IMG/VR virus record: IMGVR_UViG_2563366953_000006
Span: 1 to 42,424 of that record
Reading direction: 5' to 3' (one strand)
DNA from: a virus
Taxonomy: Duplodnaviria; Heunggongvirae; Uroviricota; Caudoviricetes
DNA: 42,424 bases
Part shown: piece by piece, positions 40-42,424 of the stretch
Position numbering within the stretch: the first letter of the stretch is position 1
Layout: each line of letters starts with the position of its first letter
The notes under the pieces: model-generated
The model's input: the letters and a program-made list of their open reading frames with translations, nothing else
Told to the model about the DNA's origin: nothing
The model's database searches: none
Translations under genes and position numbers: made by a program

Positions 40-402
40 GGGGCTGATTCTGGATTCGACGGGATTTGCGAAACCCAAGGTGCATGCCGAGGGGCGGTTG
101 GCCTCGTAAAAAGCCGCAAAAAATAGTCGCAAACGACGAAAACTACGCTTTAGCAGCTTAATAACCTGCTTAGAGCCCTCTCTCCCTAGCCTCCGCTCTT
201 AGGACGGGGATCAAGAGAGGTCAAACCCAAAAGAGATCGCGTGGAAGCCCTGCCTGGGGTTGAAGCGTTAAAACTTAATCAGGCTAGTTTGTTAGTGGCG
301 TGTCCGTCCGCAGCTGGCAAGCGAATGTAAAGACTGACTAAGCATGTAGTACCGAGGACGTAGGAATTTCGGACGCGGGTTCAACTCCCGCCAGCTCCAC
401 CA
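40..402 (+). ncRNA. ssrA: tmRNA (SsrA), complete, ending in CCA
   Basis: Begins GGGGCTGATTCTGGATTCGACGGG and ends GGGTTCAACTCCCGCCAGCTCCACCA; contains the tag-peptide coding stretch GCAAACGACGAAAACTACGCTTTAGCAGCTTAA. Recognised from memory of enterobacterial ssrA (363 nt). Confidence 0.93.
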
Positions 403-539
403 ATCATGATTGGACGGTGTAAGGACAACACCAACAAAAACAGGAAGTTAGCAGTCTCAGCAGGACACCGACCAGACGGTGATGAGACAAAAAAGGATAC
501 GCAAAGGAGCCGCGGCTCTCGAGTGACACAAAAGCCCGC
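372..539. repeat. Left copy of imperfect direct repeat (attL-like): 3' end of ssrA plus about 135 bp downstream
   Basis: Near-identical to 41489..41655; includes a 36-bp perfectly shared block GGGTTCAACTCCCGCCAGCTCCACCAATCATGATTG, with scattered mismatches elsewhere. Confidence 0.8.
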
Positions 540-560: not shown

Positions 561-636
561 CCCTTAAGTTCCTAGCCGCTTATCTATAACTATGGAAAAA
601 TGTTAACCCTGACTGTATGTTAACAAAGGGATGTAT

Positions 637-1845
637 ATGTCGGTTTTTCATAACTGGCTGCTTGATATCGCAAGCGGGAATTACTTTATCTACATCAAAC
701 GCCTTTCTGCAAACGACACAGGCGCAACAGGTGGCCATCAGGTCGGACTTTATATCCCCTCAAATATCGTTGAAAAGCTTTTTCCATCTATCAATCATAC
801 TCGCGAACTGAACCCTTCAGTCTTCCTTACTGCGCATGTATCATCCCATGATTGCCCTGATACCCAAGCACGCGCAATTTATTACAACAACCGTTATTTT
901 GGTAAGACCCGAAACGAAAAAAGAATTACGCGCTGGGGGAGAGGAAGTCCATTACAGAACCCTGAAAATACAGGAGCCCTGACAATTCTTGCCTTCAGGT
1001 TAAACGAACAGAACACTGACTGTTCCGAGGTAGATATATGGGTCTGCGTCAATCCCGATGAAGAGGATATCATCGAGTCTGCTATTGGCGAAATCATACC
1101 TGGAACCCTAATTTCCGGCCCTGCCGGACAAATTTTGGGCGGATTGTCTCTTCAGCAAACTCCAGTAAATCATAAATATGTTATTCCTGAAGACTGGAAG
1201 AAGCGTTTTCCTTCTGGAAACGAAATTATTCAATATGCTGCTGGCCATTATGCTAAAAACTCCAAGGATCCAGATGAGCAACTGATTGACCGTCGGCGTG
1301 TCGAGTATGATATTTTTCTACTCGTCGAGGAATTACATGTTCTTGATATTATTAAGAAAGGATTCGATTCTGTAGATGAGTTTATTGCATTAGCCAACTC
1401 TGTCAGTAATCGACGTAAATCAAGGGCAGGTAAATCACTTGAACTTCACCTAGAGAAGCTTTTTATCGAGCACGGACTACGGCATTTCTCCACTCAGGCA
1501 GTTACTGAAGGTAATAAAAAACCAGATTTCCTGTTTCCTTCAGCAGAGGCATATCATAACGTTGAATTTCCTGTAGAAAACTTACGTATGCTGGCAGTAA
1601 AGACCACCTGCAAAGATCGCTGGCGTCAGATACTGAATGAAGCAGATAAAATCCATCAGGTACATTTATTTACGCTGCAAGAAGGTGTTTCTTCAGCACA
1701 ATACCGAGAAATGAAAGATGCGGGTGTCAGACTCGTTGTACCATCAACTTTACATAAAAAATACCCAGAAGCAGTTAGAGAAGAATTAATAACGCTCGGA
1801 GCATTCATTACTGAGCTGATAGAACTTTACGCTGAACTATCATAG
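637..1845 (+). CDS. ecoRIIR: Type IIE restriction endonuclease, EcoRII-like (CCWGG)
   Basis: Protein MSVFHNWLLDIASGNYFIYIKRLSANDTGATGGHQVGLYIPS... is near-collinear with R.EcoRII as recalled (about 400 aa). Start taken at the second ATG (637), which has better spacing from the AGGGA Shine-Dalgarno; the ORF track starts at 631. Confidence 0.8.
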   Translation: MSVFHNWLLDIASGNYFIYIKRLSANDTGATGGHQVGLYIPSNIVEKLFPSINHTRELNPSVFLTAHVSSHDCPDTQARAIYYNNRYFGKTRNEKRITRWGRGSPLQNPENTGALTILAFRLNEQNTDCSEVDIWVCVNPDEEDIIESAIGEIIPGTLISGPAGQILGGLSLQQTPVNHKYVIPEDWKKRFPSGNEIIQYAAGHYAKNSKDPDEQLIDRRRVEYDIFLLVEELHVLDIIKKGFDSVDEFIALANSVSNRRKSRAGKSLELHLEKLFIEHGLRHFSTQAVTEGNKKPDFLFPSAEAYHNVEFPVENLRMLAVKTTCKDRWRQILNEADKIHQVHLFTLQEGVSSAQYREMKDAGVRLVVPSTLHKKYPEAVREELITLGAFITELIELYAELS

Positions 1846-1879
1846 GCTGACTCCCGGCTTAAAAGGCCGGGAGGTGTTC
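1846..1879. terminator. Bidirectional hairpin between convergent R and M genes
   Basis: CTCCCGGC-TTAAAA-GGCCGGGAG inverted repeat between the two stop codons. Confidence 0.5.
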
Positions 1880-3313
1880 TCAAGGCAGCCCAGTCTTACC
1901 AGCATCAGCAGAAACAGCTTTGAGGATATAGGGTTCCAGAAGTCTGGCAACGGCTTCAAATACTGGCACCACAACGGAGTTACCGAACTGCCGATATGAC
2001 TGAGTATCTGAAACCGGAATACGGAATGGTTTCCCTCCAGGTTTTTCAAACCCCATAAGGCGTGCGCACTCTCGGGGAGTCAGCCTGCGTGGTCGACGAG
2101 CCTGGTTACTCTCATTCATAAAGTCAGCCTCTCCCGTTGCCATATCCCAACCACGATCAATAAGAATTTCTGATCCGTCTTTGTGATATCTGGCAGAAAG
2201 TGTGCGTGCAATGCTTTCCTTATTCTCAGGATTGACCAACCCAAAGCCAAAACCATTCCCCTTGGCTGCATGCTTTTTGGCGTAGTTATAAAGGTACTCC
2301 CATAGTTTTGGCGTAAGTATATATTTACTGTCGACTACAGGCTCCAGCAATTCACCAAATGATGGGCGGTGTTCCGGATAAAAACGACTGATATCACGCA
2401 AGGTAAACCCCTTGTGAATATTCAGATCTCGTCTAAATCCGACCAGAACAATGCGTTCACGATGCTGAGGCAAAAAATGCTTCCCATCGATAATCTTTGG
2501 ATCGTTTTTTCCCATTTCTGCAGCATCGGCAACTTCGTAGCCCAGCTCGTCAAGGGTCTCCATAATGACTTTGAAAGTTTTACCCTTATCATGGCTCTTC
2601 AGATTTTTGACATTTTCCAGCACAAAAATTGCCGGTTTTTTTGCTCGTATAATACGTGCCACGTCAAAAAAAAGTGTTCCTTGTGCTTCACATTCAAAAC
2701 CATGCGCACGACCAAGTGAGTTTTTCTTACTAACACCAGCAAGGCTAAATGGCTGGCACGGGAACCCCGCAAGAAGCACATCATGATCCGGCACATGCTC
2801 ATCAATATATGCATAAGCATCCGTTTCCAATACATCGGTTTTATCACTCAGCGTGACTTCCCGAATATCGAGATTGAATTTATGCACCTGTTCATCGTTA
2901 AACCAGTTGGCCTTGTATGTACGCACAGCATCTTTATTCCATTCACTGGTAAAAACACACTGGCCTCCAATGGCCTCAAAACCTTTCCGTATCCCTCCAA
3001 TTCCAGCAAATAAGTCAATGAAGCGGAAAGCATATTCCGGATGGTTTGCAGGTGGTTCTGGTAGCATCTTACGCAGAAGAGACTCTTCTACTGAAGTCAA
3101 CGATTTTGGTAAACACTTGCCATTAATCCAGCGGTTAATGGTTTCACGGCTCCACTCATTTTTTCCGACTTTTCTCAGTAATTCAGCCACATACTTCTGA
3201 TCATAGATTTCCAGCACTTTCTCGATAAGCTTTTTATCATTTTCCTGTCGCAGCTTTTCTTCCGCCTCGGCTTCCTTCAGCAGATGCTGTGCCAACACTT
3301 CAAATTCAGACAT
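1880..3313 (-). CDS. ecoRIIM: DNA cytosine-5 methyltransferase, Dcm / M.EcoRII family
   Basis: Contains [17 protein letters not shown] (motif I), [11 protein letters not shown] (PC catalytic motif), ENVKNL and [10 protein letters not shown]; collinear with Dcm/M.EcoRII. Start placed at MSEFEV (3313), preceded by GGAGG; the ORF track extends to 3355. Confidence 0.88.
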
Positions 3314-3619
3314 AATTCCTCCAAGGGGTCTAATGGGTGAAACTCTATCACTCATTCAACCCAGAAGGAAATGTTTTATCTGGATATTTAAACAGTGACT
3401 ACAACGTAATCTAGCACTGGTGATGCTTTGTTAGGCATAGAGAATCATTCTATATACGACTAATGACAGAAAAACAGCAGACAAGTAGTTTGTTCATAAA
3501 TTAACGCATACTACGTGCCTACGGTTTTCGAGACCGGTCCAATCATCAAACGAAACATAAAATTAGCTCACATTATGAGGAAAGGTATCTTTTTGCGCTA
3601 TGTAAATTCAAAGGGTTAG

Positions 3620-4489
<870 letters not shown>

Positions 4490-4546: not shown

Positions 4547-5101
4547 TCATTTATCTCCGACCGGAAACTTCTTATACAGTGTCGATATACCAACATCATA
4601 GATGATCGCCACCTTCTGGCGAGGAACGCCTGATGCAATTAATCGCCCGGCCTGCGCCCATTGTTCTGGTGTAAGTTTGGGACGACGTCCACCAATTCGT
4701 CCCTGTGCGCGAGCAGCTTCCAGTCCAGCTTTTGTTCGTTCAACAATCAGTTCTCGTTCCATTTCAGCCAGGGCACCCATCACATGAAAGAAAAAACGCC
4801 CCATCGGTGTGCTGGTATCAATAGCATCCGTCAGGCTGCGCAAATTAACGCCACGTTCGCGCAACTCCTCAACCAGAATGACCAGATGCCGCATGCTACG
4901 CCCTAGCCGATCCAGCTTCCAGACAACCAGAGTGTCACCTGCCGATAATGTCCTGAGCAGTTTTTTCAGTCCCGGCCTTTCGGACTTTGTACCGCTTATC
5001 TTGTCTTCAAAAATCAGCTCGCATCCTGCACAGTTCAGCGCATTACGTTGTAGATCTGTGTTCTGGTCATTTGTTGACACACGTACATAGCCAATAAGCA
5101 T
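4547..5101 (-). CDS. pin: Serine DNA invertase, Gin/Pin/Cin/Hin family
   Basis: MLIGYVRVSTNDQNTDLQ...LVVWKLDRLGRSMRHL...GRIGGRRPKL is a near match to e14 Pin / Mu Gin as recalled; lies next to an invertible tail-fibre segment. Start at MLIGY (5101). Confidence 0.9.
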   Translation of the reverse strand: MLIGYVRVSTNDQNTDLQRNALNCAGCELIFEDKISGTKSERPGLKKLLRTLSAGDTLVVWKLDRLGRSMRHLVILVEELRERGVNLRSLTDAIDTSTPMGRFFFHVMGALAEMERELIVERTKAGLEAARAQGRIGGRRPKLTPEQWAQAGRLIASGVPRQKVAIIYDVGISTLYKKFPVGDK

Positions 5102-5127
5102 GGTAGATCTCCCTGACAAAAGCAGGA

Positions 5128-5541
5128 ATGATGCCATTTGCTCGTTATTTCTGCATTTTCATAAACGTTGGTTTGGGAGAAGCGGCAAAACGGGATGTAG
5201 GAACAGGGGAAAATCAGATACCGGATATGGCTTCTTTTGCCAGTGGTGATGGATGGATGAAATTACCCAACGGTAAAATCCTGCAATATGGTCGAGGTGC
5301 GGTTACGCCGACATTATCGACGCAAACAATGAGAATTACATTCAGCATCCCTTTTCCTAAAAAAGTGGACTGCGCCATGCTTACTCATTCTGGTGATGGT
5401 GGTGCACCTTTAGGTGCTGGACGGGGATTCGTGATGACCGCAGAAGGTCCAACATTAACCGGTTTTAATTCCGCTTACAGAACTGCATCAACCAGTTCCA
5501 CAGTATCGATGAATTACAGTTGGTGGGCTGTTGGTGAGTAA
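5128..5541 (+). CDS. Alternate tail-fibre C-terminal cassette (Sv'-like), silent in this orientation
   Basis: The frame continues through the crossover site (NVGLGEAAKR) so that inversion would fuse it to the constant N-terminus of the tail fibre; it has no independent promoter or RBS context. Confidence 0.6.
   Translation: MMPFARYFCIFINVGLGEAAKRDVGTGENQIPDMASFASGDGWMKLPNGKILQYGRGAVTPTLSTQTMRITFSIPFPKKVDCAMLTHSGDGGAPLGAGRGFVMTAEGPTLTGFNSAYRTASTSSTVSMNYSWWAVGE
5157..5182. repeat. Invertase crossover site (gix/pix-like), left
   Basis: TTTTCATAAACGTTGGTTTGGGAGAA; its reverse complement matches the site at 7078..7103 over TTCTCCCAAACCAA-GTTT. Confidence 0.7.
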
Positions 5542-5552
5542 TTTTATTAAGG

Positions 5553-6005
5553 GTGATTTATATGAACGAATATGTTTATAGCGCAAGGCATAATGCTTTT
5601 TTCCCTGTGGATATGATTGATAAATATAAATCAGAGGGATGGGATTTATCAGATGCTAAAGAGGTGAATCAAAATATTATCAGTGAATTTATGGCTGAAC
5701 CGCCACAAGGAAAAATCCGTATTGCCGGAGGTGATGGGCAGCCCGCGTGGGCAGATATTCCTCCACCCACGCATGAAGAACTTATTGAAATTACTGAATC
5801 AGAAAGACAGCTACTAATTAACCAGGCCAACGAATACATGAACAGTAAGCAATGGCCCGGTAAAGCCGCTATTGGTCGTCTGAAAGGTGAGGAACTGGCG
5901 CAATATAATTTGTGGCTGGATTATCTGGATGCACTGGAGCTGGTTGATACCTCCAGTGCACCAGATATTGAATGGCCTACGCCTCCGGCAGTTCAGGCCA
6001 GATGA
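5553..6005 (+). CDS. Tail-fibre assembly protein (Tfa, U'-like), alternate
   Basis: C-terminus LWLDYLDALELVDTSSAPDIEWP is the Tfa-family signature; sits inside the invertible segment on the opposite strand to its partner. Confidence 0.75.
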   Translation: MIYMNEYVYSARHNAFFPVDMIDKYKSEGWDLSDAKEVNQNIISEFMAEPPQGKIRIAGGDGQPAWADIPPPTHEELIEITESERQLLINQANEYMNSKQWPGKAAIGRLKGEELAQYNLWLDYLDALELVDTSSAPDIEWPTPPAVQAR

Positions 6006-6579
6006 CATCCGGCGCGGTGCTGGTATCTGTTGCCGTCACCGCGTCAATGTAATCCAGCACAGCGTTAAGGCTGGTTGTTTCTGCCTGCGTCAGTTTACGT
6101 CCGGCCTGCAATTTCAGCTGAATCAGACTGATTGAAGCCATTGCAGTATTAATCAGTGACTGGCGCTGTGCTTCTGCTACATCTACTGCGGCGCTATGCT
6201 GTGCTTCGGTATCCGTCACCCATTTCTCACCATCCCATTTATCGTATGGCGTTAACGGGGCGATAGTGGTTGTATTATCAGGGTAATCACCCGGAGCTGT
6301 GATTTCTTTTGATTCTCCTGTTTCGGTGCTATATACCGTTTCACCGCGATGATCTGGCACATATTCCCATGAGTTAAAATCTGCAGAACGGCAAATTGCA
6401 TAACCAGCTTTATATGAGCCAGGAGCATCTAAACAGGAACATGCCGGAATACCGACGCCAACCGCAAGATATTCAGTTGATGTGGAAATATATTCCCGCG
6501 TTTCACCATCATAATTATAAATAGTAATGTCTCCCGCTTTTATGGCAATGAGTTCGTTATTTAATACGGCTTTATTCAT
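5977..6579 (-). CDS. Tail-fibre assembly protein (Tfa, U-like), expressed orientation
   Basis: C-terminus AVLDYIDAVTATDTSTAPDVIWPELP (Tfa family); immediately downstream of the tail-fibre gene. Confidence 0.8.
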   Translation of the reverse strand: MNKAVLNNELIAIKAGDITIYNYDGETREYISTSTEYLAVGVGIPACSCLDAPGSYKAGYAICRSADFNSWEYVPDHRGETVYSTETGESKEITAPGDYPDNTTTIAPLTPYDKWDGEKWVTDTEAQHSAAVDVAEAQRQSLINTAMASISLIQLKLQAGRKLTQAETTSLNAVLDYIDAVTATDTSTAPDVIWPELPEA

Positions 6580-7379
6580 CAGGCAGCCCTCACGATATAA
6601 TTAAAGGCAATGTTACGAGGACGGTTTTCGTTTGCAGTTGGAACAATTCTTGAAGCATCAAGGCCAATCACTTTTGGGTAAACACCGCCCTCGGACCTTT
6701 CTGTCACCATACTTCTGACTAAGGAGAAATAACTATTGTTCGTTGAGGGGTTCAAAGGCACTACTGCCCCCTTAAACGAGCCTACTGATTCCCATATTGA
6801 ATAATTTTCGGTGTTTACAGTCTTGAACTCACCATAGATATTACGTATGGCATCGCCCTGAGCTGATAATATTGCCCTCCCCGTATCCATACCACGTCCG
6901 TCATCCCAGCCACGAATAAACTCACCACGTAAATCAGGCAATTTATTTGTCGGATAAGCCTTTGCCAGTTCCGGGTATTCTTCAGCAGAAAAAGCCGCGC
7001 CGTTGCATTTCAGCCAGCCTGTTGGCGGAGTGGCGGAAGGCCATGGAACAGGGACACCAACGGGTAATGCAGAGCCTTCTCCCAAACCAAGGTTTTCGAG
7101 AGCCGTTTTCACCGTGCCATCCGATTTGATATCGCTAAACGGATTCTTGCGGCTTAACAGCAGCGCACGAAGCGCGGTAAGCAGCTGGTCATGCCGCCCC
7201 TTCTCCAGGCTGGCACCGGATGCCTCCACAACGCTGCAAAGCTCCTCCTGCAACATGTCAAAGTAGTCATCATCCAGATCGGTGGCAGGCGTGCCGGTCT
7301 GGGGGTTACCACGGGTAAAACCGTTCTTACCCGCGCCGAACTTATCCTTCTGCGCGGTTTTCGTGTCTATACGATGCAT
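6579..7379 (-). CDS. Tail fibre protein (constant N-terminal part plus variable collar-type C-terminus, S-like)
   Basis: Lies between the DUF2313 baseplate gene and Tfa; C-terminal region [24 protein letters not shown] resembles the phage tail-collar domain; the crossover site is at codons ~93-100. Confidence 0.8.
7078..7103. repeat. Invertase crossover site (gix/pix-like), right, inside the tail-fibre gene
   Basis: TTCTCCCAAACCAAGGTTTTCGAGAG, inverted relative to 5157..5182; both sites encode the peptide GLGE in their respective reading frames. Confidence 0.7.
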
Positions 7380-24786: not shown

Positions 24787-25545
24787 TTATTTTTTCTTCT
24801 TATTTAACTTATCTAAATTGACGGGATCTTTCCCTGTGGCAGCTAAACACCAAAAAGAATAACTCTTTTGCATGACATAGGTTCTAATTCTCTCTAATGT
24901 TTCATTATATTTTTTCTCAACAACCTGTATCGCATGTTCAAATAAATTAATCATATCAACATGCTCGTCCTCGACACCAATCATGCTCAGTTGTTTTCTA
25001 TCTGTCACTGCTTGATAAAATGTTTTCCCATTTTTCCTTATTAGTAACAATGAAGTTTCTGCTGACTCATAGTCTTGGTTGCCGCTATGTGCTGCAAAAT
25101 TATGCCTGTAGTTAATAATACAGTCATGCAACCCAAAATATTCAGAATCAAGCCAATCACGCTCCATCTTTAACTTTCTCCCTTTAGCTTCAGAGAAAGC
25201 TTTACCATAAAACGTTAGGCTTGCCACAAATAACGCTCTAATTTCACTTGATAAATCTAGATCAAGTATATTCCCGTATAACTTGCCATCTGTCCTTAAT
25301 TCGTTTCTCCCTGCCAGTTCATTAGCTATTTGGTACCACTCTTTAGCACTTTTTAAGTCCCTATGAATTAGGGACAGTGAAGATGCTCTATCGGCAATAC
25401 GCCCACTCAATTTTATGCGATCTACAATTTCATTATTGAATGTATAAACCGCTTTAAATTCCCCCGTTTCGGAATCAATATAATATTCAACATCTAACCC
25501 TTCATATGATTCACACCCGGGACCTTCTAATTTTTTTCTTTTCAT
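24787..25545 (-). CDS. AT-rich orphan gene, hypothetical 252-aa protein (moron; candidate accessory/defence function)
   Basis: Single ORF sitting between Rz and the HNH/terminase block; composition visibly more AT-rich than the flanking phage genes; no recognisable family from sequence. Confidence 0.6.
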   Translation of the reverse strand: MKRKKLEGPGCESYEGLDVEYYIDSETGEFKAVYTFNNEIVDRIKLSGRIADRASSLSLIHRDLKSAKEWYQIANELAGRNELRTDGKLYGNILDLDLSSEIRALFVASLTFYGKAFSEAKGRKLKMERDWLDSEYFGLHDCIINYRHNFAAHSGNQDYESAETSLLLIRKNGKTFYQAVTDRKQLSMIGVEDEHVDMINLFEHAIQVVEKKYNETLERIRTYVMQKSYSFWCLAATGKDPVNLDKLNKKKK

Positions 25546-27192: not shown

Positions 27193-28134
27193 ATGAGTAC
27201 AGAAAATAAGAATAAAACCAGGCGAGTGAGAGTTGGTTTTTTCACTGGTAATGGAAGCAAAAAAGATGGCACATCTGCTGCAAAACTAGCCTTTGAGCAA
27301 ATGACCACAGCAGATACTGTAACTTTTCCAATAACTTACACAACAGACACCCCAAATCGAGGGTTAAAGTTAGTTATTCTTCAAAAAGATACCACACTGC
27401 AATGTTACTTTGGTTACGTATCGTGGAGAAGGGAATGCCTACTACCGTTCATCGAGGATGCTACAGGTAGTGAGAGAACAATTCCTTTAAATGATAAAGA
27501 TTCTGTAGTTGAAAGAACATATTTTATCTATTACTACGAAACGGACTTATTAGCTATGACCCTCAACCATATAGGGCCCAAAGTAAATGATCTGGCATTC
27601 ATTTTGTATAACAAAACTGATTTAAAAAGCGTCACTTTTGAAGCCATTTGGAAACAAGAGAGCATGAAGGAACTGCTTGAGGACGGAAATATCCTACGTA
27701 GTTTCGATCTTATAGTTGCTGCTCCAAGAAACTTTAACAAAGCTAATTATAAGATTAAAAACCCTTTAGCTAATGAAATTATTGACATGGTTGTTGGTAT
27801 GGGCGGGTCGCATCTAAGATTAAATATGCGAGGTCGGATTCGCCCGAAAAAACAAGGGTTTAACTATCTAAAAACTTCTGTCACCGATGCTATTAAGGAA
27901 CTACTTGAACTTTTTCCAAAAGGTTCTGGAGGTCTAAAAATTAAAAAAATTGATGTAACAGAGCCATCCAATAGAACGCCCAAAAGTCTACTTGACCAAG
28001 TATTGGTCAGTACAAAGACAATCATTGTCAAAAGCGGTTATCCATCCGATTCTGATATCAGAACGGCGATGATATCTGCTAAAATTGATAACGCGAACTA
28101 TCTTGCACAGTATGAGCTCGCTAGCAGAGACTAA
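27193..28134 (+). CDS. Hypothetical 313-aa soluble protein, first gene of an AT-rich two-gene cassette (candidate defence/abortive-infection sensor)
   Basis: ORF on the strand opposite to all late genes, in the Q-to-lysis moron position; no Walker A motif and no recognised domain; followed 9 bp later by a 4-TM protein gene. Confidence 0.65.
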   Translation: MSTENKNKTRRVRVGFFTGNGSKKDGTSAAKLAFEQMTTADTVTFPITYTTDTPNRGLKLVILQKDTTLQCYFGYVSWRRECLLPFIEDATGSERTIPLNDKDSVVERTYFIYYYETDLLAMTLNHIGPKVNDLAFILYNKTDLKSVTFEAIWKQESMKELLEDGNILRSFDLIVAAPRNFNKANYKIKNPLANEIIDMVVGMGGSHLRLNMRGRIRPKKQGFNYLKTSVTDAIKELLELFPKGSGGLKIKKIDVTEPSNRTPKSLLDQVLVSTKTIIVKSGYPSDSDIRTAMISAKIDNANYLAQYELASRD

Positions 28135-28155
28135 TAACCAAGCATGGAGGACACA

Positions 28156-28605
28156 ATGAGAGAATTAGCCACTTTTCTCTGGAAATGCGTCCTCTGGATT
28201 CTGTTGACCTATGCAGCGACAAAACTGTTTAAACCGATGAAGCATGCTGACGTACTCACAACAGCGGGGGTGCTCTCGACTATATCAGGCATCCTGTTTG
28301 GTTTTGTTCTGGCTGCAATATCTATATTTAGTAGTGCAAACAGCGATAAGGAAGGAGCAATTAATGCCCTTAAGCAAAACAACGTGTTACCAACTCTGGT
28401 AAATAGATTACTTTCAACAGGGTTAACTCTCATCGTCGCATGTATATTTCCATTGATAGCGATGTTTCTACCTGATGATGTTATTGTTGCGGGCAAACCT
28501 ATTGATTTCCTGTTCATACTGTTAGGCTTATCCTCCCTTATAATTTCGCTATATACCTTCGGAAGGTGTTGGTTAGTGTTACGAAAAATCTTCCCCCACT
28601 TGTGA
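28156..28605 (+). CDS. Small polytopic membrane protein (4 predicted TM helices), second gene of the cassette (candidate membrane effector)
   Basis: Four hydrophobic stretches (res ~8-27, 38-62, 88-108, 120-146 of the 153-aa track ORF); start placed at MRELATF (28156), preceded by GGAGG; track start is 28144. Confidence 0.65.
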   Translation: MRELATFLWKCVLWILLTYAATKLFKPMKHADVLTTAGVLSTISGILFGFVLAAISIFSSANSDKEGAINALKQNNVLPTLVNRLLSTGLTLIVACIFPLIAMFLPDDVIVAGKPIDFLFILLGLSSLIISLYTFGRCWLVLRKIFPHL

Positions 28606-32694: not shown

Positions 32695-33632
32695 CCCCTG
32701 AATCCTGCCGGGATCTGGCTGTAGTCCACGTTGTCGTAACTGGCTTTGAAGTACGGGTCTTCGCGTTTTTCTGTGTGCGTGCTGACGGACGGCGATAAGC
32801 GCAGGGAAAGCTCATCCCATTTTTCCCGCAACTTCGACGGGCTGAGCACGTTACGGCACCAGAACGGATCGCGGCTGACGCGGCTGTACATCTCGCAGAT
32901 TTGTTTGTGAGTACGACCATCCTGCACACACATCAGGCGAATTTCGTTTGCCCAGGCTGTCCAGTTAGGTTCTTTGGGACGAACCACCTCGCCGTCACAT
33001 TCGGCGGCCTGCTCGTACAGGGCGATGATTTTTTTCCAGAGCCACTGTGCGCAGGTCAAATCATCCTGCGTTCCCCACTGGCGCTTTTTAGGGCTGAATA
33101 CAACCGCATCAGGATGGCGAGTTAAAAAATCCTGTTCATCCGTCTGCGTGTCCGGTTGCGAAGCGTCCGGACGAGAAGTTTTTTTATCTGATGGATCATG
33201 TTTTGATTTTACTGACGGATCCCCGCCAGATTCTGACGGGTGAAAACCCGCTTTTTTGCCAGATTTCGACGCATCAAATTTTGACGGGTCAGATTTTGAT
33301 GCGTCAGATTTTGACGGGTCAGAATCTGACAGTTGAGAAAATGCCGCTGCCTGAAGCTTCGCAACGTTAAGCTGATAAACATTCGACGCATTGCGGTTAC
33401 CCTGGCGACGCGCCTTACGCGTTAACCAGCCTTCTGCTTCCAGCCGTGCGATAGCCGTTCTGACGGTACTCATCCCCGCGCCAATCTGGCGTGCAATGGT
33501 TTCAATTGATGGCCAGCACACACCTTCGTCATTACTGAAATCAGCCAGGCGGGCCATAATTGCCACGCTGGATAACTTCATGCCTGACGCAGCGCAACCA
33601 TCCCATACATAGCCGGTTAATTTAGTGCTCAT
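32691..33632 (-). CDS. Replication initiator (O-like), N-terminal HTH with internal low-complexity repeat encoded by iterons
   Basis: N-terminal HTH-like region WPSIETIARQIGAGMSTVRTAIARLEAEGWLTR; central SDSDPSKSDASKSDPSKFDASKS repeat coincides with DNA direct repeats. Confidence 0.65.
   Translation of the reverse strand: MSTKLTGYVWDGCAASGMKLSSVAIMARLADFSNDEGVCWPSIETIARQIGAGMSTVRTAIARLEAEGWLTRKARRQGNRNASNVYQLNVAKLQAAAFSQLSDSDPSKSDASKSDPSKFDASKSGKKAGFHPSESGGDPSVKSKHDPSDKKTSRPDASQPDTQTDEQDFLTRHPDAVVFSPKKRQWGTQDDLTCAQWLWKKIIALYEQAAECDGEVVRPKEPNWTAWANEIRLMCVQDGRTHKQICEMYSRVSRDPFWCRNVLSPSKLREKWDELSLRLSPSVSTHTEKREDPYFKASYDNVDYSQIPAGFRG
33200..33335. repeat. Iteron-like direct repeats (candidate replication origin) inside the initiator gene
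   Basis: Repeated units of the form GATTTTGACGGGTCAGA / GATTTTGATGCGTCAGA, at least 4-6 copies. Confidence 0.6.
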
Positions 33633-35670: not shown

Positions 35671-35875
35671 TAATTTTATCTTTTGTTCCAGACCAACTAC
35701 AGGATTACAACAAAATCTGGTTGCAACACGGTGCATGTGTCGTAAGCAGTCAGTAAATGTCAAAAACGAACAGGCAGGACGCCCACGAAGTAGCCGCCTG
35801 GGGCATATGAAGTCCAGGATGATTCGTTGAGTCATGTTGTGCCACTAGGCACTCATGTTAAAGCAGGTGTATGAA

Positions 35876-36151
35876 ATGAAAGTCCAGATTTTAAACAATA
35901 ACTGTGAAGTCGTTTGGTCATACGACATAGCCGCCCCTGTAGATCAGAGCGGCGATAGCTGGACCAATGGGAAACATCAGATTATGGCTGGAGTTGTGTT
36001 CTCTTTACGCCGTGCTTTGGAACAGGCTGAAGTATTTCCATCAGACCCTGAATGGAAATGGCCTTTTTCTATTTGTCCAAATTCGGAGAGCACATTTCAG
36101 AAAATTGGTCAGAAAGTCGCACTCGAAGAGCATCAGCCAACTGTTTCCTGA
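35876..36151 (+). CDS. Hypothetical small protein (early plus-strand operon)
   Basis: Start at MKVQIL with AGGTG 7 nt upstream; overlaps a convergent minus-strand ORF so only one may be real. Confidence 0.3.
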   Translation: MKVQILNNNCEVVWSYDIAAPVDQSGDSWTNGKHQIMAGVVFSLRRALEQAEVFPSDPEWKWPFSICPNSESTFQKIGQKVALEEHQPTVS

Positions 36152-36419: not shown

Positions 36420-36745
36420 TAGCGTTGTGGTGAATGCGGCTCAGCGCACGCGGGTTAAGGTTGAGGCTGACAGTCGACCTTCTGTGGATACCCACCCGCC
36501 TGGTGTGCAACCTTCGCCAGGCACCGGGAGGCACCCGGCACCACAACTTTATGCTGTGTGTAGTCCTGGCGGTACCAGTTTGTACCCTTGCTTCCGGCTG
36601 GTACCGTCCTTTTTTGCAAAACAGAGAAGAGCATCACCGGACGACGGGCTCATAACCCAATCCATCCGGGCGGCTGCCACCGCAGGTGTTCTTCTCTGTT
36701 TTGTGGAGAAACCAACCGACCTTGCAGGGTCGATATGATGAGGAG
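36420..36745. other. GC-rich structured non-coding region (candidate ncRNA or regulatory site)
   Basis: No convincing ORF; 14-bp perfect inverted repeat CAAAACAGAGAAGA (36617..36630) / TCTTCTCTGTTTTG (36690..36703) plus CGGTACCAG/CTGGTACCG and other short palindromes. Confidence 0.4.
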
Positions 36746-36752
36746 CAGCAAA

Positions 36753-37115
36753 ATGGCTAGCGAACGCAGTACTGATGTGCAGGCATTTATCGGGGAGCTG
36801 GACGGCGGCGTATTTGAAACCAAAATCGGCGCAGTTCTCAGTGAGGTCGCTTCCGGTGTGATGAACACGAAAACCAAAGGGAAGGTCTCACTCAATCTGG
36901 AAATCGAACCGTTTGATGAGAACCGTGTGAAAATCAAACACAAACTCTCATATGTTCGCCCAACTAACCGCGGGAAAATTTCCGAAGAAGACACCACCGA
37001 AACGCCGATGTATGTCAATCGCGGTGGTCGCCTGACTATTCTGCAGGAAGACCAGGGACAATTACTGACTCTTGCCGGTGCACCTGACGGAAAACTCCGC
37101 GCAGCAGGTCATTAA
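36753..37115 (+). CDS. Hypothetical prophage protein, YfdP-like
   Basis: Start at MASERSTDV with GAGGAG upstream; followed by YfdQ/YfdR/YfdS-like genes in the CPS-53 order as recalled. Confidence 0.45.
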   Translation: MASERSTDVQAFIGELDGGVFETKIGAVLSEVASGVMNTKTKGKVSLNLEIEPFDENRVKIKHKLSYVRPTNRGKISEEDTTETPMYVNRGGRLTILQEDQGQLLTLAGAPDGKLRAAGH

Positions 37116-39293: not shown

Positions 39294-39500
39294 ATGCTGA
39301 ACCTCGATTGTGTTCCAATCTCAACTTATTGCAAAGAAACTGGCGAAACTCCTGAAGCAATAAACAAACGTGTACAGCGCGGTGTTTGGCGTGAAGGTGT
39401 TCAGGTTTTAAAGGTTGAAGGCGTTAAGGAGAGGTGGATTGATCTTAGTGAGGTTGCAAAATGGGCCAGACAAAACTGCTCAAACTACCGCGCGGCGTAA
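39294..39500 (+). CDS. Excisionase-like protein (Xis)
   Basis: 68-aa protein immediately upstream of and overlapping the integrase; the EAINKRVQRGVWREGVQ segment resembles lambda Xis ETVRRWVRE; GGAG RBS. Confidence 0.5.
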   Translation: MLNLDCVPISTYCKETGETPEAINKRVQRGVWREGVQVLKVEGVKERWIDLSEVAKWARQNCSNYRAA

Positions 39501-40633
39501 CAATCAGGAAACACCGCCTGGGCGAAACGATCAATATAACTTTCACCTATAAAGGAGTTAAATGTCGTGAGCCTCTTTCCAATCTGGAAGTAATACCAAA
39601 GAACATAAAATACGCCGAGCGCACACTCGGCGAAATTCATAATAAGATCGAAAGGGGAACATTCATTTATGCGGAATATTTTCCCCGTTCTGCTCGTTTG
39701 AAAATTTTTGGTAATGCTGCTGCAGGCAAAACGGTAAAAATGTACCTGGACGAATACCTTGAAATCTGCGAAACGAGAAAACTTTCACCCTCTACGATTG
39801 GTGGTTATAAAAAATGCCGTAGTGCGTTAGCCTCACTCCACATTTGCCCTGCAAGTGAATTAACACCAGCAATCCTGAAAGCGTGGATTCAAAGCCAGAA
39901 AACGACCTTAAAAACAATTCGCAACCAGTTATCTTTCCTGCGGTCAGCACTTGATGAAGCCGTAACCGATGGGGTACTTCAAATTAACCCCGTATCGTTG
40001 GTAACTGCTTCGCGCTACCAAAGTGATAAGTCAGAAGCAGAAAGCAGCTACGTGGTTGATCCGCTATCACCAGCAGAAGTTGATGCATTACTAGCAGCAG
40101 CCGGAAACAAACAATGGGAAAATCTGTTCCGGTTCGCTATACATACAGGCCTGCGTAGTTCTGAATTATGTGCCCTTCGATGGCGTGATATCGACTTTGT
40201 TGGAAAAACTGCCCATGTCCAGAGCGCAAGTGTTGTCGGTGTTATCAAAGGGACAAAGACAAAAGCAGGTACTCGGAAAGTTGAACTGACAGAAGAGGCA
40301 ATGTTGGCGCTGATAAATCAGAAGCCATTTACATTCATGAAGGATGCTACTGTCTTTGAAGATCCAAAGACCAATAAGCCTTGGGCAAGTGCTGATGCAA
40401 TTAGGAAAAAAGCATGGGTGCCAACATTGCGAAAAGCAGGTATTCGTTACAGAAACCCATATCAAACCAGGCATACATTCGCCACCAGCCATATCAGCCG
40501 AGGAGCAAACCTGTTTTGGCTTGCAGCTCAAATGGGGCATAAAGGGCCGGAGATGCTTTTCAGGCACTATGGTTCGTATCTTAAAGAGTATGATAACTTT
40601 ACATCGATAAATCATTTGCATAATCATAATTAA
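39461..40633 (+). CDS. Tyrosine site-specific integrase (phage integrase family)
   Basis: 390 aa; C-terminal catalytic residues in TGLRSSELCALRW..., YQTRHTFAT and MGHKGPEMLFRHYGSYL (R...H..R...Y); adjacent to the right repeat. Confidence 0.9.
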   Translation: MGQTKLLKLPRGVTIRKHRLGETINITFTYKGVKCREPLSNLEVIPKNIKYAERTLGEIHNKIERGTFIYAEYFPRSARLKIFGNAAAGKTVKMYLDEYLEICETRKLSPSTIGGYKKCRSALASLHICPASELTPAILKAWIQSQKTTLKTIRNQLSFLRSALDEAVTDGVLQINPVSLVTASRYQSDKSEAESSYVVDPLSPAEVDALLAAAGNKQWENLFRFAIHTGLRSSELCALRWRDIDFVGKTAHVQSASVVGVIKGTKTKAGTRKVELTEEAMLALINQKPFTFMKDATVFEDPKTNKPWASADAIRKKAWVPTLRKAGIRYRNPYQTRHTFATSHISRGANLFWLAAQMGHKGPEMLFRHYGSYLKEYDNFTSINHLHNHN

Positions 40634-40640
40634 TATTTAA

Positions 40641-40670
40641 TAATCCCCGCATTTTTAAAATCGGGGATTT
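40641..40670 (+). terminator. Hairpin downstream of int (possible terminator or int-binding arm site)
   Basis: ATCCCCG-CATTTTTAAAAT-CGGGGAT inverted repeat. Confidence 0.35.
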
Positions 40671-40674
40671 AAAG

Positions 40675-41454
40675 TTGATTACAATTACATTCGACAAACT
40701 AATCACCTACATATCTTCAGTTGGTACTTTCATTTCAGCAATTGCTGCATTATATGCAATATGGTTAACGATATTTCAAAGAAGGCTCTCTTATAAACCC
40801 AATTTAGTGATAGACACTTTAAATGTCAAGATGAATGTTAACGATTTCAACGGTTTTCATGTTGATATCTTACAAGCCCCTACGCTTCCACAAACAAAAT
40901 TTTCAAACATAGGATTGGGGGCGGCAATTTCACTTAGATATCATTGGGATTTTAATTATAAAAAAAACATAAATCTATACTTAGAGTTGTTTTCGAAAAA
41001 ATTCAAAAAAGAAGATAAATCTTTTACAACCGACTCCCAGTATGGAATGTTCAAAATAATAAAAGAAAGAAAAGTATATATGTACAATACTTTATCGACA
41101 CCTTACGATATTGATTTTTCGTTACCATATAGTATAGATAAGAAGTCAAAAAACATTTTTGTACCAACCGCGGCAATTGATATTCTATTGAATATAGCAT
41201 ATCTTTCACATAGACTTAAATTAGTCGGTTCTTCATCATTCACTGGTCCAAAATTAATTATTGAATATCAAGATATAGAGGGTAAAACTAAAAAAGTCAC
41301 TTGGCAAACAAAATTGGAACGTGGAGTGGCACGTTTCAGTGGTGATAATATGGAGGCAGATTTTGCACTACGGTTTACACCTGTACCAGAGAAATGGACT
41401 ACAAAAGGTCTAGAGAAGATACGCAAAAGCGCCGCAAACGCCATGTTCAGATAA
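40675..41454 (+). CDS. AT-rich cargo gene: hypothetical 259-aa protein with N-terminal TM anchor
   Basis: Lies between int and the right repeat; very AT-rich; apparent TTG start; N-terminal hydrophobic helix ITYISSVGTFISAIAALYAIWLTIF; no recognised domain. Confidence 0.5.
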   Translation: MITITFDKLITYISSVGTFISAIAALYAIWLTIFQRRLSYKPNLVIDTLNVKMNVNDFNGFHVDILQAPTLPQTKFSNIGLGAAISLRYHWDFNYKKNINLYLELFSKKFKKEDKSFTTDSQYGMFKIIKERKVYMYNTLSTPYDIDFSLPYSIDKKSKNIFVPTAAIDILLNIAYLSHRLKLVGSSSFTGPKLIIEYQDIEGKTKKVTWQTKLERGVARFSGDNMEADFALRFTPVPEKWTTKGLEKIRKSAANAMFR

Positions 41455-41488
41455 ATATATAATTAAAACAACAGGTTAATATTTTTCA

Positions 41489-41655
41489 GACACGGGTTCA
41501 ACTCCCGCCAGCTCCACCAATCATGATTGAACGGTGCAAGGACAACACCAACAAAAACAGGAAGTTAGAAGTCTCAGCAAGACACCGACCAGACGGTGAG
41601 GAGACAAAAAAGGATACGCAAAGGAGCCGCGGCTCCTGGTGACATGAAAGCCCAC
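41489..41655. repeat. Right copy of imperfect direct repeat (attR-like), carrying a partial duplicate of the ssrA 3' end
   Basis: Direct repeat of 372..539 with about 10 mismatches; lies just downstream of the integrase and the AT-rich cargo gene. Confidence 0.8.
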
Positions 41656-41671
41656 AGATGTGCAATGCCGT

Positions 41672-42424
41672 TCACTTAAGCGGAGCGGTGCTGCGTTTCA
41701 CCGGATAACGGGTTTTTGATATCTTAACTGCCCTCGGCCTTGATGGTCGGGGGCGTTTTGTTATGAACACAACTTCCAGAGCACCCCGCAGATGCTCCAG
41801 TCGTTTCGGGATGGTCCCCGGTGATGCCGTATTTCCCAGCACTATCATTTCTGTCGCGATAAACTGGAACGCGAACTTAAAGCTGATTTCTGACGCCGCT
41901 TTTTTGTGTTTCTCAGCCGCTTTTGTTGCCTCACGCCGTATCAGGTTGTAAGCCAGCAACATGCCCCACACCTCCTGTTCCAGCAGCTCAACCTTACGGC
42001 TTCTCAGCACCAGGGCATTGTTCAGCAGGCTGCTTTTCAGGTTTCTGAACCCGACTTCGATTTCCCATCGTGAATGGTAAAGTTCCGCTACCTCTTTTGC
42101 TTTGTAGCGGTCTGCCGGGAGTGATGTCAGCACCGTTTTCTCCACACCTTTCACCTCATAAGTCACCGCCCGGGCGTACCAGAACTCTGGCAGTGCAGGA
42201 TTCTTTTTCCTCGCCTGCAGCGACACCTTCAGTTTCAGAAGCCTGTCTCCGGGACCGTAACTTTCTTCTGTTTCTGCCGCGATATTCTTCCACGCAGGCA
42301 GTAGCCAGTGGCGGTTACAACCCTGCTGGTTCAGCGTCAGCAGCAGGTCTGCGCTGTAAAAGAGCTTGTCAAACAGCGTAATGGAGTTATCCGGGATGGT
42401 GGCGAGCATGGAGTGAGCCAGCAC
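41672..42424 (-). CDS. IS4-family DDE transposase, C-terminal part (5' end lies beyond the window)
   Basis: C-terminal YHSRWEIEVGFRNLKSSL matches the IS4-family Y-(2)-R-(3)-E-(6)-K signature; the ORF runs off the window edge. Confidence 0.7.
   Translation of the reverse strand: MLAHSMLATIPDNSITLFDKLFYSADLLLTLNQQGCNRHWLLPAWKNIAAETEESYGPGDRLLKLKVSLQARKKNPALPEFWYARAVTYEVKGVEKTVLTSLPADRYKAKEVAELYHSRWEIEVGFRNLKSSLLNNALVLRSRKVELLEQEVWGMLLAYNLIRREATKAAEKHKKAASEISFKFAFQFIATEMIVLGNTASPGTIPKRLEHLRGALEVVFITKRPRPSRPRAVKISKTRYPVKRSTAPLK

Follow-up and report, generated by a model that had tools for sequence, protein, structure and literature searches.

An AT-rich, membrane-anchored cargo gene overlapping probable attP arm sites of an ssrA-integrating prophage is a candidate anti-phage gene

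Prophage setting

The window, by which we mean the whole 42,424-nt stretch of DNA analysed here, comprises ssrA, then an apparently intact ~41 kb prophage, then an IS transposase beyond attR (Table 1). The prophage encodes a terminase, an HK97-type capsid, a tape-measure protein, baseplate J, Rz, a CI-like repressor and early genes of yfdQ/yfdR type, a label that leaves out the neighbouring ORFs at 35855-36151 and 36588-37115. Its last gene, hereafter the ORF, starts 41 nt past the end of the integrase gene int and stops 29 nt short of the right att repeat. In the circular phage, the EcoRII restriction–modification pair and PD-T4-3 (631-4489), at the left end of the prophage, form the other side of attP; both flanks of attP thus hold defence-type cargo.

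Table 1. Coordinates of the ORF, its parts and its landmarks in the window.
Feature	Position	Strand	Remarks
ssrA (tmRNA)	40-402	+	3' end is the integration target, attL side; ARAGORN and Rfam RF00023 (292.8 bits)
Left att repeat copy, 152 nt	367-518	+	Last 36 nt of ssrA and 116 nt beyond; 95% identical to 41484-41635
EcoRII-type restriction enzyme	631-1845	+	Pfam EcoRII-N/C; PADLOC REase_II 2e-234
C5 methylase	1880-3355	-	Pfam DNA_methylase; PADLOC MTase_II 5e-230
PD-T4-3 GIY-YIG protein	3665-4489	+	PADLOC PD-T4-3 3e-140
Tyrosine integrase, ssrA-specific (int)	39461-40633	+	Pfam Arm-DNA-bind_2 and Phage_integrase
Putative sigma-70 promoter	40616-40644	+	-35 TTGCAT at 40616-40621, 17-nt spacer, -10 AATAAT at 40639-40644; in silico
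Hairpin	40642-40669	+	Directly past the -10; 3' arm holds the Shine-Dalgarno GGGGA (40663-40667), 7 nt before TTG
ORF under study	40675-41454	+	259 aa, TTG start; last phage gene; member of phrog_7259
TM helix (about residues 12-34) and QRRLSYKP (35-42)	40708-40800	+	By hydropathy; most conserved part of the protein
Ig-like beta-sandwich with two inserted helices (residues 43-239)	40801-41391	+	Predicted cytoplasmic
Two tandem ARGnnnCGYAAA copies (AAGATACGCAAA, AAGCGCCGCAAA)	41416-41438	+	Probable arm-type Int-binding sites, attP P arm
attR, right att repeat copy	41484-41635	+	41484-41519 is a copy of the ssrA 3' end
DDE transposase of IS element	41672-42424	-	Pfam DDE_Tnp_1; starts 37 nt past the att repeat and runs off the window; outside the prophage

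Where the att repeat extends beyond the ssrA 3' end (403-518 and 41520-41635), attR on its bacterial side shares 95% identity with the phage P' arm, arm-like motif included; earlier integrations may have left this extension as a fossil, or it may be captured host sequence. Part of a query covering 40400-41700 matched 4211 of 5426 E. coli genomes.

The gene and its family

An earlier note on this DNA, made from the letters alone, had described an AT-rich reading frame with a TTG start, and this description proved exact: the ORF has a GC content of 32.7% (GC3 28%), setting it apart in base composition, as is typical of a moron, from int (44%) and from the prophage as a whole (50.1%). Its product is 99% identical to RefSeq WP_127490476.1, the protein annotated at the locus. 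TTG is the earliest possible start past an in-frame TAA at 40627-40629, and the next in-frame starts, GTG at codon 45 and ATG at codon 53, would each remove the transmembrane (TM) segment. The note had allowed that the real start might be the internal Met; this can be ruled out, since the TM segment upstream of it is the most constrained part of the protein in both identity and dN/dS. Because that segment is the best conserved and the reading frames of homologues open at the corresponding codon, be it ATG, GTG or TTG, we take the TTG start and the membrane anchor to be real. The ORF itself is a real gene under selection, as 127 family representatives and a dN/dS of 0.22 are more than chance would give; the confident fold model described below agrees with this.

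The cluster representative P0001 differs from the window protein only at residues ~100-113 (window 40960-41010), where length changes of -2/-1 in the A8 and A6 runs shift the frame and then restore it; the homopolymer tracts have either slipped naturally or been assembled wrongly.

The ORF matches the phrog_7259 profile over its full length (E 1.4e-86, residues 7-259 against profile positions 6-270 of 277). A word-indexed search found 21 relatives, and all six that bear a taxon name are from Enterobacteriaceae; an exhaustive search at E<=1e-3 returned the 127 representatives, 117-324 aa long (the large majority 220-290 aa), most of which align over most of their length and one of which is a Pseudomonas sp. 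protein. The region behind the anchor had been described as a domain without recognisable motif, and profile searches agreed: Pfam and NCBIfam gave nothing for the ORF and only scattered single-member chance matches for 61 family members, while PADLOC-DB v2.0.0 (5027 models) gave 0 matches for the ORF at E<=10 and 0 for the 61 members at E<=0.1. Four PHROGs families matched at E<=10, all of unknown function, and the PHROGs, Pfam and NCBIfam profiles revealed no homology to superinfection-exclusion families (SieA, Sie2009, Imm, Cor, Llp and others). Neither a PDB sequence profile search nor a scan of species-representative genomes with the family alignments A2 and A4 yielded anything useful. 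Two nearby membrane proteins, of 272 aa in locus L005 and 272 aa in L037, were considered as paralogues and rejected, having no HMM match.

Conservation is concentrated in the anchor. In the close set, residues 12-42 have a mean pairwise identity of 85%, against 34-46% for the regions downstream of the TM helix and 52% for the N-terminal tail (1-11); in the broad set, identity is 41% in the TM region versus 13-31% downstream of it. Pairwise Nei-Gojobori dN/dS, an estimate that saturates at larger distances, is 0.04 for the TM region, 0.26 for the remainder of the ORF and 0.03 for int. Q35 and R36/R37 are invariant within the juxtamembrane motif QRRLSYKP, and further family motifs are N78-I-G-L-G-x-A84, W91, L150-P151 and Y198-x-D200-x-x-G203; the columns of the family alignment hold no conserved constellation of His, Cys, Ser or acidic residues that would point to catalysis.

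The soluble domain is under purifying selection overall (dN/dS about 0.26) and gives no arms-race signal. Diversifying selection was considered as the source of the gap in identity between int and the ORF and was discarded, the ORF having a dN/dS of about 0.2-0.26 and the dS of int being saturated at 1.6-2.3; between the window and locus L016, for example, dS is 0.26 for the ORF and 1.79 for int. Relaxed purifying selection together with some recombination is enough to account for the gap. A basic DNA-binding domain was likewise ruled out, as the pI of the domain ranges from 4.8 to 9.6 across the family, a spread that indicates no obvious ligand class.

Membrane topology and fold

Hydropathy supports the single N-terminal TM helix claimed in the earlier note: the best 19-residue window, residues 16-34, has a mean of 1.99, and the runner-up reaches 1.43. 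One face of the helix carries small residues (S21, A22, A24, A25 and A28). Lys and Arg are more frequent C-terminal of the helix, with a mean of 3.6 in the 15 residues after it versus 1.4 before it, a bias found in 58 of the 61 members; by the positive-inside rule this would put the large domain in the cytoplasm, and the topology is probably N-out/C-in with the sandwich domain cytoplasmic. Such a location argues against a classical periplasmic exclusion protein. A Sec signal peptide was rejected because there is no basic n-region and the charge follows the hydrophobic segment.

In an AlphaFold2 model built with a 61-sequence alignment (pLDDT 95.6, pTM 0.86), residues 6-39 form a helix, a beta-sandwich into which two helices are inserted follows, and residues 240-258 make up a C-terminal helix; a BFVD fold search returned only noise, with TM-scores <=0.22. 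The layout of TM helix, linker and Ig-like domain echoes the Kir/KirBac inward-rectifier channels. This resemblance is structural only, and the Kir-type features of two TM helices, a pore helix and a selectivity filter are lacking in the ORF. The conserved TM helix looks like the working part of the protein and not just a passive anchor, and the faster-evolving cytoplasmic sandwich looks like a recognition module.

The cargo slot between int and att

int is present in 396 of 5426 complete E. coli genomes, and downstream of this same integrase (84-100% amino-acid identity) we found at least six different cassettes, or none. The window allele of the ORF occupies the slot in 50 of the 396 int-positive genomes, in every case at least 99% identical, and a second family allele, 28% identical, does so in 10 further ones (family total 60). 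Junction-spanning queries placed PD-lambda-5 in the slot in 85 genomes, a STAS-like three-gene cassette on the opposite strand in 126, and two more cassettes in 16 genomes each. Isolated phages vary in the same way: phage LLS (int 86% identical) has a 26-27%-identical family member before a tmRNA-type attP, phage phiNP (92%) has PD-lambda-5, and the slot of phage Kp4866-6 (88%) is empty. The family member of LLS is its gene 31, which the LLS phage paper leaves without discussion. For this locus, then, the idea that the interval between int and att is a site for morons was right, presence or absence varying among close relatives both in the E. coli genomes and in the isolated phages.

PD-lambda-5 is an experimentally validated, broadly acting defence system (PMC9519451). 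The alternating cassettes, PD-lambda-5 among them, together with the R-M pair and PD-T4-3 across attP, make the attP surroundings in this phage lineage a hotspot of cargo in which defence systems certainly occur.

The slot is most often filled by the STAS-like trio (locus L036, 4165-6035), carried by E. coli PMV-1 and 125 other genomes.

The two ends of the cassette

The earlier note placed the ORF between int and the right repeat. As a reading frame it does lie downstream of int and before attR, but the cassette reaches into both neighbours, starting inside the last ~13-20 codons of int and ending in ~12 codons that are made of probable attP arm-type sites. On the left, nucleotide homology between int alleles with different cargo ends at int nt 1112-1134 of 1173, so the cassette brings its own last ~13-20 int codons.

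A promoter-like element, TTGnnn-N17-AATAAT, was present in every int-linked allele inspected, including those linked to an int remnant; its spacer varies in sequence and its -10 ends 29-35 nt before the start codon. A consensus promoter scan also picks the element at 40616-40644, and a P2-like locus has a similar TTGAAT-N17-GATAAT. The hairpin that follows (MFE -12.3 kcal/mol, z -4.2) has equivalents with different stem sequences in 12 alleles, and compensatory changes occur in 8 of its 9 consensus pairs. Both are absent downstream of int alleles with other cargo, which rules out the hairpin as a generic int terminator; by this comparison of alleles, the promoter-like element and the hairpin appear specific to cassettes of the ORF family. 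From the putative cassette promoter, transcription would begin within the hairpin and leave the ribosome-binding site free, and read-through from int would fold the hairpin and keep the ORF silent; with the promoter so placed and read-through silent, the ORF would be expressed in lysogens independently of int. This promoter model fits the retention of the ORF beside a mere int stub in some genomes (see below).

On the right, every slot variant examined has a tandem motif of ~11 bp at a distance of 55-85 nt to the left of the att core. This holds for the PD-lambda-5, STAS and WAT cassettes and also for the empty slot, in which the tail of int itself contains the motif. ARGnnnCGYAAA has 6 matches in the window versus 1.8 expected by chance, and 4 of the 6 flank att cores, the match in the left att copy lying at 494-505. 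Right of the core, tandem-looking stretches occur at 494-516 and 41611-41633, with only the first repeat exact. Because of this position beside the att cores and the arm-binding domain in Int, the tandem copies AAGATACGCAAA and AAGCGCCGCAAA are probably arm-type Int sites of attP. They encode residues K248-N255 of the ORF (K-I-R-K-S-A-A-N), which thus extends into the presumed P arm of attP, and the 'IRK' conserved at its C-terminus may reflect constraint at the DNA level.

This arrangement bears on whether the ORF might be an accessory of the integration module, in which either the protein or the act of transcribing or translating across the P arm would tune integration or excision. Besides the overlaps with the arm motif and with the last codons of int, such a role would suit the fixed distance at which family members start past int across alleles down to 26% identity (37-44 nt in annotated loci; 26-44 nt with the self-called starts of viral contigs). 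We nevertheless consider it very improbable: ssrA is also the site of the about 85% of prophages that have this int but no family member, one homologue stands behind an unrelated int of P2 type, downstream of a C repressor, and others are without any int, the ORF stays intact after int has decayed, and a membrane anchor has no obvious role in recombination.

Genomic neighbourhoods and prior prediction

Where int is 84-96% identical, the accompanying family member has 25-63% identity with the window ORF or with P0032, the A4 reference. Decay has reduced the prophage in Enterobacter hormaechei and Cedecea neteri to a mini-island with an att core on either side, in which an int stub of 55-118 aa remains beside an intact ORF; in Cedecea an AbiTii gene lies directly upstream of the homologue. 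A distant homologue, on contigs whose protein cluster includes a Pseudomonas sp. member, has as neighbours a type I-C retron, IetAS, SoFic and a gene with Pfam HipA_C, and another is enclosed in a type I R-M locus that also has Hachiman-like PDC-M23 genes. Locus L054 has only unknown genes around the homologue, with no recognisable defence neighbours. The family is thus recurrently co-located with known defence systems in unrelated genomes.

The Enterobacter hormaechei mini-island (L005-L008, 6598-8850) is 2.2 kb long, and all that persists between its two ssrA att cores is an int stub of 55 aa, a protein of 272 aa with an N-terminal anchor and the intact family member, which here has outlived its prophage.

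The family has also been flagged by machine learning, as one of more than 1,000 predicted clusters, and its candidacy will come as no surprise to specialists. In Table S10 of the DefensePredictor study (DeWeirdt, Mahoney and Laub, Science 2026, PMC13092281), WP_127490476.1 is listed as a 'Predicted novel defense gene' with a mean log-odds of 8.59 (range 8.00-9.85), where 4 is the stringent cut-off; WP_000016409.1, the second E. coli allele, has a log-odds of 8.05. Both are absent from the tables of tested units (94 units; Table S6) in that study, where 45% of the tested predictions gave protection and the STAS-like trio of the same slot, at a log-odds of 5.75, gave none in the assay (PMC13092281). 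The failure of the trio is a useful caution for the prediction made of the ORF. If DefensePredictor draws on genomic context, its score may partly reuse neighbourhood information and so not be fully independent of the argument from context.

The same neighbourhoods weigh on the reading of the ORF as a membrane protein of lysogenic conversion or host physiology, which would modulate envelope, transport or stress, or exclude plasmids or other mobile elements. Many att-adjacent genes are conversion genes, PADLOC-DB revealed no defence homology, the co-slot cassette that had been predicted defensive failed its test, and the charge of the soluble domain is not conserved. Against this stand the recurrence of the family beside genuine defence systems in genomes that are unrelated, the high machine-learning score and a slot that alternates with a validated system, and we regard a conversion function as distinctly unlikely.

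Function

We read the ORF as lysogen-benefiting cargo of an ssrA-integrating temperate phage, its product anchored in the inner membrane and most likely anti-phage; we place this reading just on the probable side, and a defence function of any kind, argued as it is from sequence and context, is moderately probable. The earlier note had named the ORF a candidate superinfection-exclusion or defence protein. Defence gains from the variable slot shared with PD-lambda-5, from the distant homologues in defence islands and from the DefensePredictor score; exclusion of the classical periplasmic kind loses, given the predicted cytoplasmic location of the large domain, and the failed STAS-like slot-mate counsels restraint.

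In the mechanism that we slightly favour, the ORF would act as a single-gene, autonomously transcribed, inner-membrane-anchored protein whose fast-evolving cytoplasmic domain would sense, on the inner side of the membrane, some component of a phage. The effector would be the TM helix, which has a packing face of small residues and the invariant Q35/R36 linker; its self-association would perturb or gate the membrane and lead to an outcome resembling abortive infection. A more elaborate version is a speculation that we hold to be unlikely: a one-protein immune device in which the TM helix oligomerises into a channel or lesion, gated by the Ig-like domain through the invariant Q-R-x-x-S-Y-K-P linker and triggered by a phage component, its gene fused to attP such that expression and excision could influence each other.

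The protein could instead act by direct superinfection exclusion, sitting at the cytoplasmic mouth of the entry route and blocking DNA or ejection proteins without killing the cell, like SNIPE minus its nuclease or like P22 SieA or HK97 gp15. On this reading the TM helix would have a conserved membrane protein of the host as its partner, and the variable domain would keep pace with variable tape-measure or ejection proteins of phages. SNIPE (PD-lambda-1; PMC13190303) offers a parallel. It is a single protein with an N-terminal single-pass TM segment, as in the ORF, constitutively at the inner membrane and found on E. coli mobile elements, and its N-out/C-in topology, mapped by experiment, is the one predicted for the ORF; it has DUF4041 and a GIY-YIG nuclease, whereas the ORF has neither by Pfam or PADLOC and no catalytic motif. 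Direct exclusion also agrees with the place of the ORF beside int in the lysogeny region, with a membrane anchor devoid of enzymatic motif and with strong TM conservation, as expected for a conserved host partner. That conservation, however, reaches homologues from Pseudomonas contigs, for which a common host partner is less obvious; moreover, PHROGs and Pfam show no homology to exclusion families, and a cytoplasmic domain cannot touch the tail tip in the periplasm. We judge direct exclusion to be rather unlikely overall. If the function is defence, a direct block of genome entry is a doubtful proposition and a sensor-gated membrane effector a tentative one, slightly favoured, with nothing here that separates the two.

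Comparison with known systems and significance

PD-lambda-5 (Vassallo et al. 2022, PMC9519451) is likewise prophage cargo in the same slot, after an ssrA-type int and before attP, but it is a two-gene system of an ATPase and an adenine methylase that acts in the cytoplasm, its int junction differs, and it has no relation to the ORF in sequence or fold. The superinfection-exclusion proteins P22 SieA, HK97 gp15 and lactococcal Sie2009 of temperate phages (PMC10883804) are prophage-expressed, membrane-located and non-enzymatic, and are encoded in the lysogeny module or beside it; we detected no sequence similarity between them and the ORF, they differ from it in size and fold, and the bulk of the ORF product is predicted to be cytoplasmic. 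phrog_7259 and the DefensePredictor cluster WP_127490476.1 are the same family as the ORF, and neither assigns a function or reports a test.

Should the ORF prove defensive, prophage-borne immunity in E. coli (ST131 lineages among them), in Klebsiella and in Enterobacter would gain a new family with a new fold, a protein that acts at the inner membrane without an enzymatic domain, and the int-attP slot of ssrA phages would be a lambdoid counterpart of the P2/P4 defence hotspots. With at least six cassettes, most of them uncharacterised, the slot is a compact place to seek new systems. The overlap of the cargo with the probable attP arm sites and with the last codons of int shows cassette exchange that leaves integration unbroken, and this anatomy is useful for annotating prophage ends.

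Other features of the prophage

At 4547-7379, a serine invertase adjoins opposed tail-fibre and tail-fibre-assembly genes, which suggests invertible host-range switching as described for phage LLS. Other AT-rich ORFs (36-45% GC), of 313 aa and 153 aa on the plus strand and 252 aa on the minus strand beside the lysis genes, lie in 27193-28605 and 24787-25545; they have no Pfam or PADLOC match and are possible additional cargo. Inside a 313-aa ORF of the early region, a 15-nt unit (CAGATTTTGACGGGT-like) is repeated in tandem at 33260-33334; detected as four 30-nt copies that overlap at a spacing of 15 nt, the array amounts to about five units in 75 nt and looks like the iterons of a replication origin.
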